From NCBI GenBank assembly GCA_963747055.1, contig CAVVDY010000003.1:49630-113629 (forward strand): 64,000 bases of DNA, given 5' to 3'. Shown here piece by piece: positions 5,006 to 7,120 of this stretch. The notes under the pieces were generated by a model that saw only the letters and a list, made by a program, of their open reading frames with translations, searched no databases and was not told the origin of the DNA. Within the stretch, counting starts at the first letter, position 1; each line of letters starts with the position of its first letter. This DNA is from an uncultured Acidobacteriaceae bacterium. Lineage in GTDB: Bacteria > Acidobacteriota > Terriglobia > Terriglobales > Acidobacteriaceae. The position numbers and the translations under genes were made by a program.

Positions 5006-7120
5006 CTAATCGCCGAACACGGCTTCCTTCTCTTCTTCTTTTTCTTTCACCTGCGCGGCCGGTTTGACGCCACCAATCGACCCCAGAGGAACGAATGCGC
5101 CTTTTTCCTCAGGCTTCTCGCCAAGGATGTGCTGGCGATAGAGGGCTTCCATACGCGCGTCTTCGGCTTCTTTCTTCAGGCGCTCTTCGCGGGCCTTGAA
5201 CTTCTCCTGGCGCGCGTTCTTCACGATGCCCAGATCGTCGAGTGTGTGGTTGGCTTCGGCCGCCACATGCTCATCGACCAGCACCAGGGTGTGATCGGTG
5301 GTAGGCAGGCCGACCTTCTTGCCGCCGGCGAAGATCTCGTGGCGTCCCTTCTCCGCGTACCACTTGGTCAGAGTGGCCGTCATGTGCATCTTCTCTACGA
5401 TGTTGCGCCAGCCCACGCCGGTGTTGTAGGCGCAGAAGCTGATCTCGCCTTCCTGCGTGGCGTAGGGAATAATGCACTGCTCGGTGCGGCGGAAGTCGTA
5501 GTTGAACAGGTCCTGGAACCACATGCCGGCGATGAACAAGAAGTTCCAGCGATCGCGGCGGCGCTTCTCGATGTCGGTCAAGGTACGCTCGCCGGAAACC
5601 TTGCCGTAGTCCTTGCCGGTGGCGCCAAAGGTCTTATCGAATTTCTTCAGCAGGTCGGCAAACCTGAAGTGTTTGGGCGACTTGAAGGGATCGTAGTTCT
5701 TAAGCAGCGCCAGCGTCATGCCGGTAATCGACATCCACTTGCCGCGCGCAGCGTCGTTCACCTTGGCGATGTCCTTGGCAATCTTATCGCCGTTGAGGAA
5801 CGCGGTGACAGGCACGGCTTCCTTGGTTTCCTTGTCGATCATCAGCGCCATGCCGACACCGCAGTTGGGGTGGCAGCCGCAGTTCAGTGAACCCCAGTCC
5901 TTCTCCGGTCCGTGGACCAGGTCGGCCCAATCGGAGAACGTTCCCATGAACGAGATGGGGAACCAGTCGCGCGTGGGCTCGCCCATGCCGGTCTGGTCCT
6001 TCACGTCGTGCGCCAGGTGCGACAAGGTGTAGCGCTGCGCGTGGCGGCGCTCGTCGGTGATCGCCTCGTCGCGGCCGGTAAACGACACCGGCTGGAACGA
6101 CAGGAACGAGATGCGCTTGGGATTGTCGAGCGCGAACTGAATGATGCGTCCCACCTGCTCGTTGTTCAGGTTGTTGACGATGGTCACGACCGGAACGATC
6201 TCGACGCCGGCCTTGTGCAGGTTCTCAATCGCCTGCAGCTTTACGTCGAACAGGTTGCCGACCAGTCGATGCGAGTTGGCAGCATTGCCGATACCGTCGA
6301 ACTGTAGATAGGCGTAGCGCAGTCCGGCCTCGGCGGCCTTCTGGCAGAACTCAAAGCTCTTGGCGAACTCGATGCCATTGGTCGCAGCCTGTACGCTGTT
6401 GTAGCCAACCTTCCGCGAATAGGCGACGGCGTCGAGGAAGTAGGGCGACAACGTCGGCTCGCCACCGGAAAACTGTACCGACATCTGGCGGCGCGGCTTG
6501 ATGGTGATGGCGTCGTCGAGCATCTTCTTGATCTCTTCCCACGACAGCTCATGCACGAAGCCGACCTGATTGGCATCCATGAAGCAGGGGTCGCACATCA
6601 TGTTGCAGCGGTTGGTCAGGTCGATGGTCAGCACCGATCCGCGGCCGTGCTTCACTGTGCTGGATCCGTGATGATGCAGGCGCTCGTCATTGTGGGCGCG
6701 AATGTCGCGGCCGGGGAAAACTTCTTCCAGATGGCGGAAGAACGCGGTATCGATGGCCATCACGTCTTCGAAGTGTCCGTGCGTGGGGCAGTCCTTTACC
6801 ATCAGGATCTGGCCATCGCGCTCGATGATCTGTGCCTTGATCTCGCCCGCCTTCTCGTTCATCAGCACTTCGACCGGCAGCTTGCCGTCGATGATCTGCT
6901 GGCGAATCTCAGGTACGCACTTTGGACAGAGCGAGTCGGTGGAGCGCGGCCAGCCCAACGGAGGCTTCGACTTCTGATACGACTTCAGCAGCGGCTTGTC
7001 TGACCACTTGGGCGTGAACGATGGGTTGGGATTGATGCTGTTCAGCTTGTCGAATACCACCCATGCGCCCTTGGCGGCGACGGTAACTGCCTTTTCTACA
7101 TATTTAACTGGCTTATGCAT
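5006..7120 (-). CDS. Radical SAM protein, Tes / GDGT-MAS-like (putative membrane-spanning lipid synthase)
   Basis: 704 aa from ATG 7120 (GAAGGGG Shine-Dalgarno upstream). N-terminal CPKC...DCPTHGHF metal-site-like segment, radical SAM motif CNMMCDPC, SVQFSGGEPTL SAM-binding motif, and a large C-terminal domain with a charged K/E tail. Confidence 0.8.
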   Translation of the reverse strand: MHKPVKYVEKAVTVAAKGAWVVFDKLNSINPNPSFTPKWSDKPLLKSYQKSKPPLGWPRSTDSLCPKCVPEIRQQIIDGKLPVEVLMNEKAGEIKAQIIERDGQILMVKDCPTHGHFEDVMAIDTAFFRHLEEVFPGRDIRAHNDERLHHHGSSTVKHGRGSVLTIDLTNRCNMMCDPCFMDANQVGFVHELSWEEIKKMLDDAITIKPRRQMSVQFSGGEPTLSPYFLDAVAYSRKVGYNSVQAATNGIEFAKSFEFCQKAAEAGLRYAYLQFDGIGNAANSHRLVGNLFDVKLQAIENLHKAGVEIVPVVTIVNNLNNEQVGRIIQFALDNPKRISFLSFQPVSFTGRDEAITDERRHAQRYTLSHLAHDVKDQTGMGEPTRDWFPISFMGTFSDWADLVHGPEKDWGSLNCGCHPNCGVGMALMIDKETKEAVPVTAFLNGDKIAKDIAKVNDAARGKWMSITGMTLALLKNYDPFKSPKHFRFADLLKKFDKTFGATGKDYGKVSGERTLTDIEKRRRDRWNFLFIAGMWFQDLFNYDFRRTEQCIIPYATQEGEISFCAYNTGVGWRNIVEKMHMTATLTKWYAEKGRHEIFAGGKKVGLPTTDHTLVLVDEHVAAEANHTLDDLGIVKNARQEKFKAREERLKKEAEDARMEALYRQHILGEKPEEKGAFVPLGSIGGVKPAAQVKEKEEEKEAVFGD

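Follow-up and report, generated by a model that had tools for sequence, protein, structure and literature searches.

Which enzyme joins the lipid tails of acidobacterial membranes end to end? The brGDGTs (branched glycerol dialkyl glycerol tetraethers) rank with the most widely used terrestrial palaeothermometers and pH proxies, and the literature has yet to establish which enzymes make their membrane-spanning skeleton in Acidobacteria. Acidobacterial homologues of tetraether synthase from archaea (Tes, or GDGT-MAS) have been proposed for the synthesis of iso-diabolic acid and brGDGTs (Halamka et al., 2022; Zeng et al., 2022), whereas a Tes homologue was found in only 3 of 14 producers, from which another pathway was inferred (Sahonero-Canavesi, 2022). 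Papers from 2024–2025 still treat the acidobacterial Tes role as hypothesised or unconfirmed, and no later test was found. The stretch of DNA analysed here (the window, 64,000 nucleotides of a soil acidobacterium) carries a Tes-like gene that a preliminary description put forward as a candidate for this role, a reasonable proposal that is not new, since both 2022 groups had already made it. The locus thus asks how much of a tetraether synthase its product is, and what such a protein would do in a bacterium.

The gene is a 704-codon open reading frame on the minus strand, encoding a radical SAM protein of 704 aa. The preliminary description had this protein right at 5006–7120, naming no strand, and the motifs that it listed are present (C65-x2-C68 ... 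C111-P-T-H114-G; C172-NMM-C176-DP-C179). Judged by Pfam, NCBIfam, and PDB scores, the motif set and the homology detailed below lie far beyond chance. A longer, TTG-initiated frame (to 7213) is unlikely; the ATG at 7120 is favored because Met1 is invariant among homologues and GAAGGGG precedes it. The suggestion of a probable acidobacterium is supported by the closest named homologues, which at 90–91% identity belong to Candidatus Korobacteraceae/Terriglobales. The gene and its flanking elements are:

5006–7120, minus strand: coding sequence of the Tes-like radical SAM protein, termed “clade B” below (ORF; Pfam, NCBIfam, and PDB matches)
5006–5008, minus strand: TAG stop codon ending the coding sequence
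7126–7132, minus strand: Shine-Dalgarno-like GAAGGGG, 5 nt ahead of the ATG; relatives conserve GAGrGG
4952–4987, no strand assigned: GC-rich palindrome folding into a perfect 16-bp hairpin, 18 nt past the stop (dG −36.9 kcal/mol, z = −5.6)
7215–7300, minus strand: upstream block, −95 to −180, accompanying the gene in relatives with differing upstream neighbors

The hairpin is likely a transcription stop or stabilizer. It is what the preliminary description called the gene's “own terminator,” but the U tract behind it on the coding strand is just three long. The upstream block is probably a promoter or operator. A structured 5′ leader or riboswitch was rejected, as the whole window has no Rfam match at the gathering threshold and RNAalifold gave the block −2.8 kcal/mol with no meaningful covariation, leaving RNA structure unsupported. 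That the gene stands alone was borne out by ORF clustering over 82 loci, which found no conserved operon partner (the best neighbor family recurs at 18 of the 82) and no lipid operon or conserved lipid-gene neighbors. The annotated neighbors, namely MutY-like, PPK2, OmpA, and hydrolase genes, are all unrelated; the most frequent upstream family is among those left unannotated.

On the evidence of sequence and predicted structure, the protein is a full-length homologue of archaeal Tes/GDGT-MAS. It matches Pfam Radical_SAM (PF04055) at 2.7e-17, Zn_ribbon_HMPTM (PF23545) at 7.6e-13 (48.2 bits vs. a cut-off of 27), the NCBIfam Tes model NF045702 at 5.5e-95, and GDGT-MAS (PDB 7TOL) at E=1.8e-60. 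Sequence, HMM, and predicted fold all place the homology at residues 61–580. Its AF2 model (pTM 0.82) aligns with 7TOM/7TOL at TM 0.85–0.86 over ~549 columns (E 3e-35), while the next fold match, MoaA (7e-9), covers the core only. An HMM comparison with characterized Tes, which the preliminary description had recommended, cut both ways: the Tes model is the best NCBIfam match, yet the score of 318.8 bits falls below the 450 bits set as the curated whole-protein equivalog cut-off. By the same model, MJ0619 scores 744.4, the acidobacterial clade A introduced below 573–593, and clade B from Vicinamibacterales 311.4. The second-best NCBIfam match, the TrsS (seleno)protein family NF045646, reaches 205.1 bits against a cut-off of 490 and spans residues 93–378 only. 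Mapped against MJ0619, the protein divides as follows:

7037–7117, minus strand: amphipathic N-terminal helix, aa 2–28 (pLDDT 85–94; hydrophobic moment 0.53; 74–87% conserved in clade B)
6755–6949, minus strand: rubredoxin-like metal site, aa 58–122 (Pfam PF23545, ligand mapping)
6641–6694, minus strand: His-rich, Cys-free loop LHHHGSSTVKHG, aa 143–160, replacing the [4Fe-4S]N motif CPxxCGxCxxH of canonical Tes
6131–6619, minus strand: radical SAM core, aa 168–330, including the GGEP motif (Pfam)
6584–6607, minus strand: CX3CX2C motif C172/C176/C179, aligning with MJ0619 C98/C102/C105
6071–6097, minus strand: conserved SAM-contact motif FQPVSFTGR (Q343, S346, R350), downstream of the core
5381–5983, minus strand: C-terminal auxiliary-cluster/lipid-pocket domain, aa 380–580 (alignment; fold match to 7TOM/7TOL)
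5009–5380, minus strand: clade-B C-terminal extension, aa 581–704, missing from MJ0619 (insertion map, predicted model)

The modeled N-terminal helix, which could possibly serve membrane association, lies within a 56-aa extension (aa 2–57) that the insertion map finds missing from MJ0619. In the adjoining rubredoxin-like site, C65, C68, C111, and H114 map to MJ0619 C9, C12, C33, and H36, with a spacer of 42 residues versus 20 in MJ0619 (C9-X2-C12-X20-C33-X2-H36) and a 22-aa clade-B insertion (aa 71–92) inside the domain. Toward the C-terminus, C420, C549, and C563 together with M533 correspond to C338, C455, and C470 together with M439 of MJ0619, whose Cys ligands were themselves deduced from conservation, and Y553 corresponds to Y459. 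The triad, M533, and Y553 are invariant within clade B, which is ~100% conserved around the C-cluster motifs and bears extra cysteines at 414 and 416. The sequence match to MJ0619 ends at ~aa 580 and the C-terminal insertion relative to it runs from aa 603; the extension comprises a long Lys/Glu-rich helix (632–664) followed by a disordered tail with a conserved VFGD end.

The two auxiliary clusters fare differently: the ligands of the C-terminal one are kept, those of the N-terminal [4Fe-4S] lost. No Cys occurs between residues 111 and 172, so that all three [4Fe-4S]N Cys ligands are missing. In the loop that takes their place, residues 145–155 of the predicted model have low pLDDT, and H149, H151, G152, S154, and T155 are invariant across clade B. 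The CPxxCGxCxxH motif is kept in all 12 named archaeal Tes and in the clade A proteins, and is missing in all clade B proteins. What the preliminary description called “Tes/GDGT-MAS-like” is thus accurate as to full-length homology, fold, and the retained catalytic apparatus; its “MJ0619 architecture” is not. Because it scores below 450 bits, has no [4Fe-4S]N ligands, carries terminal extensions, and belongs to a separate superclade, the protein is, judging by its sequence, not an orthodox Tes.

Acidobacteria possess two types of Tes-like paralogue, and some genomes have both. Clade A is canonical (~545–580 aa, 40–47% identical to archaeal Tes, passing the Tes cut-off), and the window protein is of the clade B type (~700 aa, 28–33% identical). 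In a distance-based neighbor-joining (NJ) tree of 41 sequences and 477 columns, clade A groups with archaeal Tes, and a superclade without the N cluster, holding the window protein and no characterized enzyme, splits from both in 100 of 100 bootstraps. The window protein did not group with characterized Tes in this tree; by these sequence relationships, clade B is a bacteria-specific, uncharacterized sister group to tetraether synthase. Acidobacterial classes have conserved it vertically: identity is 76–94% (median 80%) among 81 related loci of Terriglobales and Bryobacterales and 72–76% to Vicinamibacterales, and clade B is 72–92% identical over the three orders together. These three orders represent subdivisions 1, 3, and 6, which are reported producers of iso-diabolic acid, as is subdivision 4; subdivisions 8, 10, and 23 are non-producers. 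Nor is the window gene the sole candidate, as some related Acidobacteria also carry the canonical paralogue, located 0.5–2.5 kb downstream of clade B in 4 of the 82 loci. Within the 64-kb window, tblastn found no clade A copy, and no other radical SAM or Tes-like gene was found by tblastn or by Pfam on the 60 called ORFs (eleven short ORFs excluded).

Two published genes bear on this division. S. usitatus Acid_2410 (Q025C7, 714 aa) matches archaeal Tes at 30.1% and 4e-62, and for the brGDGT maker E. aggregans just one Tes homologue is reported, at 32% and 4e-61, values in keeping with clade B but not with clade A. Judged by length, identity, and E-value alone, both fit the clade-B type. The papers list them as plain “Tes homologs,” with the missing cluster and the paralogy unmentioned. 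To this the present analysis adds the division into two clades, the loss of a cluster, and an explanation of why the reported distribution is patchy.

Two outlying proteins deserve mention. T. roseus, an iso-diabolic-acid producer, has a Tes-like protein without the C cluster (P0257), which was dropped as an uninformative counter-example: it is an accessory paralogue, because it resides on a conjugative/integrative element with a relaxase, a coupling protein, and integrases. The Cys triad of [4Fe-4S]N has also been lost in P0355, from a Parcubacteria lineage. Parcubacteria are generally regarded as anaerobic, and given this loss, the idea that the cluster was shed in adaptation to aerobic life is unsupported.

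What, then, does clade B make? Its most likely product, at about an even chance, is a membrane-spanning lipid based on iso-diabolic acid, the carbon skeleton of brGDGTs. Mechanism, substrate, and product are taken by analogy from GDGT-MAS; homology, fold, ligands, clades, and spread are what was observed. The enzyme would take two iso-C15 chains of membrane glycerolipids and join them tail to tail through their terminal (omega) methyl carbons. SAM would be cleaved by the CX3CX2C cluster (C172/C176/C179), and the 5′-deoxyadenosyl radical would take a hydrogen from a terminal methyl entering via a hydrophobic tunnel. A sulfide of the C-terminal [4Fe-4S] cluster (C420/C549/C563, with M533 labile) would then hold the alkyl radical until the other tail, activated by a second SAM, attacks the sulfur-bound carbon and so forms the C–C bond. 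With the archaeal [4Fe-4S]N missing, the rubredoxin-like Fe site that is retained would be the entry point for electrons. The conservation of the radical SAM cluster, the C-cluster Cys triad, and the equivalents of Met439 and Tyr459 supports a coupling role. Chemically, the iso-C15 terminus equals the isopropyl end of phytanyl, and iso-diabolic acid arises by omega–omega coupling. Iso-diabolic-acid tetraesters are made by Candidatus Koribacter versatilis, whose family in the NCBI taxonomy is the one to which the closest homologues are ascribed. Several points weigh against coupling. Near the C cluster, H440 and H458 of canonical Tes are replaced by W534 and P552, and the chemistry could differ. 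The clade A paralogue of some Acidobacteria could be the true synthase. A distant T. ethanolicus homologue (24% identity) yielded no membrane-spanning lipid when expressed in E. coli. The protein also scores below the Tes cut-off, misses [4Fe-4S]N, and has no conserved lipid-gene neighbors.

The same departures feed a rival account, unlikely yet worth serious thought, in which clade B acts on lipid tails by another reaction (e.g., intramolecular macrocyclization, a mid-chain cross-link, or modification of a spanning lipid formed beforehand) and clade A or another enzyme builds the iso-diabolic skeleton. The fully bootstrapped separate superclade, the loss of the N cluster, and the altered active-site surroundings (H440 to W, H458 to P, extra C414/C416) all suit a changed reaction. 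In archaea, lipid pathways do draw on more than one radical SAM paralogue (Tes, Gms, Grs), and the four genomes with clade A 0.5–2.5 kb downstream would fit sequential pathway steps; yet the two adjoin in only those 4 of 82 loci. E. aggregans, moreover, makes spanning lipids with reportedly one Tes homologue of clade-B-like figures, a clade-A-selecting threshold found a homologue in just 3 of 14 producers, and the entire Met/Tyr/C-cluster coupling apparatus is kept, each of which speaks against this rival.

That clade B works on a substrate other than lipid (a cofactor, a pterin, a peptide, or another metabolite), with the likeness to Tes due only to shared ancestry, is improbable. Some sources do label homologues “7,8-dihydro-6-hydroxymethylpterin dimethyltransferase” (HMPTM), whose PF23545 zinc-ribbon domain the window protein shares. 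This match says nothing on function, because the label derives from a pterin methylase activity of MJ0619 that could not be reproduced; the active site of MJ0619 is a hydrophobic lipid tunnel. TrsS ranks second in NCBIfam, still far under its cut-off and lower than Tes. The missing lipid-gene context would suit such a substrate, and the scaffold is repurposable, as offshoots that lost the C cluster, such as P0257 on its mobile element, illustrate; against this, the predicted fold matches the whole of GDGT-MAS, C-terminal lipid-pocket domain included. Already disfavored, and very improbable indeed, is an archaea-acquired orthodox Tes making isoprenoid GDGTs from archaeol-type diethers: Tes/GDGT-MAS gives the best PDB and NCBIfam matches, yet the protein misses the equivalog cut-off and the defining cluster, falls outside the archaeal clade, and is vertically conserved across acidobacterial classes, and GDGT synthesis is not known from any bacterium.

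Coupling by clade B would have consequences for the field. The gene would be a specific, highly conserved marker for producers in soils and lakes, and the apparent conflict between the proposed synthesis of brGDGTs by Tes homologues (Zeng et al., 2022) and the detection of such homologues in only 3 of 14 producers (Sahonero-Canavesi, 2022) would be resolved. The surface [4Fe-4S]N of Tes, whose role is not established in the literature, would be dispensable for the coupling chemistry. A bolder version, held tentatively and as somewhat short of an even chance, is that clade B rather than the canonical paralogue may be the general iso-diabolic-acid synthase of Acidobacteria and the main soil marker of the brGDGT skeleton, performing Tes-type C–C coupling with two [4Fe-4S] clusters and a mononuclear Fe, the patchily distributed clade A being accessory (e.g., for ether-linked substrates). 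The published absence of Tes homologues from most producers would then be a threshold artefact. Separating the paralogues matters, since metagenomic surveys now pool both as “Tes homologs.”

Among known systems, the closest is Tes/GDGT-MAS itself (MJ0619; 7TOL/7TOM), with which the window protein shares, at 28–33% identity, the CX3CX2C radical SAM core, the rubredoxin-like CX2C...CX2H site, the three-Cys set and labile Met of the C-terminal [4Fe-4S], the strictly conserved Tyr, and five of six SAM/5′-dA contacts. It differs in having no [4Fe-4S]N, which MJ0619 ligates via C73, C77, C80, and a conserved His; in Trp and Pro at the two C-cluster-adjacent His positions of canonical Tes; in its 56-aa N-terminal extension, 22-aa insertion, and C-terminal tail of ~100–125 aa; and in its host, which is bacterial, mostly aerobic, and built on ester-linked iso-branched lipids, unlike archaeal Tes hosts. 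Clade A (S. usitatus Acid_5929; the gene at L003:10337–12019; representative P0303) is likewise acidobacterial, of the same family, and assigned the same role in the literature, but keeps CPxxCGxCxxH. Mss of Thermotoga maritima and Thermoanaerobacter ethanolicus, the only bacterial spanning-lipid synthase shown experimentally, is also a radical SAM enzyme that joins two fatty-acyl tails, with a cluster-assisted mechanism like that of Tes postulated; it is set apart here by its description in the literature as only remotely related to Tes, occurs in anaerobes only, is functionally expressed only anaerobically, and reportedly has no counterpart in those acidobacterial genomes that were examined. 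Acid_2410 and the E. aggregans protein, flagged in earlier papers, share with the window protein the length class and a resemblance to archaeal Tes of 30–32% identity at ~1e-61.

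The gene at 5006-7120 of the window belongs to an uncharacterised, cluster-poor sister clade of the tetraether synthase found in archaea (Tes, or GDGT-MAS), here called clade B (~700 aa). The open reading frame proposed in the preliminary description is sound: it lies on the minus strand and encodes 704 aa, and the protein's 12 cysteines (65, 68, 111, 172, 176, 179, 259, 414, 416, 420, 549 and 563) include those of the CxxC...CPTHG and CNMMCDPC motifs already recognized there. ATG 7120 is the likely start codon, since Met1 is invariant among homologues and a Shine-Dalgarno-like GAAGGGG lies 5 nt upstream. 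The TauE-like upstream neighbour (7379-8104) is oriented divergently, leaving the gene monocistronic, and no neighbour is conserved among 82 loci (the best family occurs in 18), so that the gene stands alone as first described. Its supposed own terminator fares less well: a hairpin with a perfect 16-bp stem (4952-4987; -36.9 kcal/mol, z = -5.6) does lie 18 nt past the stop, but only three U follow, so that it is better described as a strong stem-loop than as an intrinsic terminator of the textbook kind. Some 95-180 nt upstream of the gene, a block at 7215-7300 (minus strand; consensus TTTTTCAAyAACATA...CCrTTCAATG...CCCGCTrA...CCCGTTyrGCC) is conserved even though the upstream genes of relatives differ, with the equivalent -95 to -180 region present in seven related loci (L001-L007). 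It had no match in an Rfam search and its consensus RNA fold is not convincing; the sole recurrent predicted pairing, of an invariant CC.TTC with the Shine-Dalgarno GAGrGG, lacks covariation. A promoter or operator is therefore more likely than an RNA structure.

The rest of the 64-kb window holds housekeeping and accessory genes, and an IS200-like transposase lies at 13483-14022; neither a lipid biosynthesis cluster nor a second Tes-like gene was found in it, and Pfam scans of 60 of its called ORFs returned no B12-binding radical SAM gene. At L002, the locus of a 90% identical relative, such a protein (497 aa, 12025-13518) is encoded ~2 kb downstream of clade B; a lipid methylase or a ring-synthase-like enzyme is conceivable. 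The segment immediately downstream (window 2968-4957) is variable; at L001, whose protein is 94% identical, a Chalcone_3-family gene and a MazE antitoxin (10319-11609) occupy its place.

Genes downstream of the clade-B gene in the window
4436-4957: DUF6978
3666-4439: DUF1828/DUF1829
2968-3372: PIN toxin gene, then a DAO oxidoreductase

Pfam places a zinc ribbon (PF23545) at aa 58-122 and Radical_SAM at aa 168-330. The Tes/GDGT-MAS-like architecture first proposed is supported by the top NCBIfam model, the Tes equivalog NF045702 (E = 5.5e-95, aa 61-580), by the sole strong PDB relative, M. jannaschii GDGT-MAS (7TOL, E = 1.8e-60, aa 94-578), and by an AlphaFold2 model built from a 33-sequence alignment (pLDDT 79.5, pTM 0.82), which matches 7TOM/7TOL at TM 0.85-0.86 over ~549 columns (E = 3e-35); the next structural match, MoaA, covers the radical SAM core alone. 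Against it stand a score of 318.8 bits, below the curated cut-off of 450, and the loss of one set of cluster ligands. The second NCBIfam match, TrsS, reaches 205 bits against a cut-off of 490. Ligands of the M. jannaschii enzyme (MJ0619), taken from the structure paper (PMC9433317) and a 2026 review, were mapped onto the window protein by aligning it with full-length MJ0619, with 12 named archaeal Tes proteins and with a diverse set of representatives.

Metal ligands and active-site residues, MJ0619 = window protein
Rubredoxin-like site: C9/C12/C33/H36 = C65/C68/C111/H114, with a 22-aa insertion; conserved
RS cluster: C98/C102/C105 = C172/C176/C179; conserved
C-terminal cluster: C338/C455/C470 and Met439 = C420/C549/C563 and M533; conserved
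Tyrosine: Tyr459 = Y553; conserved
SAM/5'-dA contacts: F106, G145, Q268, S271, R275 = F180, G220, Q343, S346, R350; conserved
[4Fe-4S]N ligands: C73/C77/C80/His (CPxxCGxCxxH) = absent; Cys-free loop LHHHGSSTVKHG

C338, C455 and C470 are taken as C-cluster ligands on the strength of their conservation. Conserved auxiliary clusters, a check proposed at the outset, are thus found only in part: the C-terminal ligands are kept and the [4Fe-4S]N ligands are missing. The loop replacing the latter is predicted with low confidence (pLDDT ~52), and its H149, H151, G152, S154 and T155 are invariant in clade B.

In a bootstrapped NJ tree, two superclades separate at 100/100 support. The canonical one comprises archaeal Tes, the acidobacterial paralogue of ~550 aa (clade A) and relatives in Planctomycetes and other groups; the other, devoid of the N cluster, comprises the window clade, the representatives P0241 and P0252, and degenerate offshoots. 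HMM comparison and phylogeny give Tes as the best NCBIfam model for a protein that scores below 450 bits and sits in a superclade apart from archaeal Tes. Clade A scores 573-593 bits, above the cut-off, and clade B from two classes 311-319. Four related loci also contain a clade A gene, found 0.5-2.5 kb downstream of clade B with unrelated genes in between (PPK2, OmpA-like, alpha/beta hydrolase).

Clade A genes downstream of clade B
L003: 10337-12019
L022: 9471-11213
L011: 10604-11983
L028: 8611-9849

Where intact, their products reach 560-580 aa; CPxxCGxC is present, and identity to MJ0619 is 41-49% (E down to 3e-158). The products at L011 and L028, of 459 and 412 aa, are truncated and their C-termini scrambled; frameshifts, pseudogenes or assembly errors may account for them. 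Terriglobus roseus DSM 18391 carries a degenerate Tes-like paralogue (AFL89353.1; L083/L084 10001-11875) of 624 aa, which shares 42% identity with the window protein and lacks the Cys of both auxiliary clusters as well as a counterpart of Tyr459. Its gene lies within a conjugative or integrative element, among genes for a TrwC relaxase, a TraG/TrwB coupling protein, ParA, RPA and two tyrosine integrases. A 510-aa Tes-like protein of Parcubacteria (Minisyncoccales, Candidate Phyla Radiation; P0355, P0534-P0536) branches beside the archaeal Tes clade and has lost the [4Fe-4S]N cysteines while keeping the C cluster, Met and Tyr, a loss independent of that in the N-cluster-less superclade.

Relatives of the window protein occur in at least 596 genomes, counted one per species with a search pattern that may also catch some non-clade-B proteins. 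The best 80 are all full-length and 76-92% identical, from cultured Acidipila rosea and Granulicella aggregans as well as Edaphobacter, Terracidiphilus, Sulfotelmatobacter, Angelobacter, Bryobacterales and Sulfopaludibacter. A second search, seeded with P0241 (62% identical), added Vicinamibacterales proteins with 72-76% identity to the window protein and the same ligand pattern; 116 of its 117 full-length matches are Cys-free between CPxHG and CX3CX2C. Two proteins ~90% identical to the window enzyme (P0042 and P0053), which public MAGs assign to a 'Candidatus Bathyarchaeia archaeon' and a 'Verrucomicrobiae bacterium', probably come from mis-binned acidobacterial contigs; such entries could inflate the apparent distribution of Tes in surveys.

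Clade-B orthologues are already in the literature as 'Tes homologs', not told apart from the canonical paralogue. Zeng et al. (2022) put forward 456 bacterial homologues as brGDGT synthases, with top matches in Ca. Koribacter versatilis (42%, 1e-149) and Ca. Solibacter usitatus (40%, 1e-139), and one in E. aggregans (32%, 4e-61). Against archaeal Tes, clade A measures 40-47% (1e-131 to 1e-167) and clade B 28-33% (1e-57 to 1e-77); the top matches are therefore clade A and the E. aggregans protein clade-B-like. The supplement of Halamka et al. confirms this reading for S. usitatus: Acid_5929 (545 aa) matches at 40.2% and 1.4e-139, Acid_2410 (714 aa) at 30.1% and 4.2e-62. Sahonero-Canavesi et al. 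set their limits at >=30% identity and E <= 1e-50 against a Methanococcus Tes; of 14 Acidobacteria that produce iso-diabolic acid, only 3 had a homologue by this standard, from which the authors inferred an alternative pathway. The identity of clade B to the Methanococcales Tes proteins compared is 28.3-30.6%, on both sides of that threshold; judging from these identity ranges, the cut-off probably let through mainly clade A and so produced the reported patchiness. Papers of 2024 and 2025 treat the role of bacterial homologues as hypothesized or without experimental confirmation, and the 2026 review mentions them as bioinformatic detections only. The candidate role is a hypothesis already in print; what is new is the division into two clades, the absence of a metallocluster, a broad distribution under strong conservation and an account of the '3 of 14' result.

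Tail-to-tail coupling of iso-C15 chains is the best-supported candidate function, and we give it an even chance. It is favoured by several lines together: the complete GDGT-MAS coupling apparatus is retained; conservation is very strong across three orders and two acidobacterial classes; the spread of clade B matches subdivisions 1, 3 and 6, which are known iso-diabolic-acid producers; Mss, the bacterial membrane-spanning lipid synthase, is reported absent from Acidobacteria; and the chemistry fits, iso-C15 and phytanyl chains sharing a terminal isopropyl end, iso-diabolic acid forming via omega-omega coupling, and GDGT-MAS accommodating ester-linked diacyl lipids. The main rival holds that clade B performs a different lipid-tail reaction while clade A or another enzyme couples; we consider it unlikely, though not negligible. 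A non-lipid role is less likely still and decidedly improbable. An orthodox GDGT synthase is effectively excluded. Even in MJ0619 neither the rubredoxin-like site nor the N cluster has a known role, and loss of the latter is accordingly no argument against activity. The preliminary observation is thereby confirmed and its interpretation partly supported; interest would be high if genetics or expression showed that clade B makes iso-diabolic acid.

By analogy with GDGT-MAS, coupling by clade B would begin with SAM cleavage; a hydrogen would then be abstracted, an S-alkyl intermediate would form at the C cluster, and a second activation would follow. Compared with MJ0619, the window protein is extended at its N-terminus (aa 2-57), where an amphipathic helix is predicted with confidence (aa 2-28), and at its C-terminus, the match ending at aa ~580 and an alignment insertion starting at aa 603; it carries additional invariant cysteines 414 and 416, and H440 and H458 are replaced by W534 and P552.
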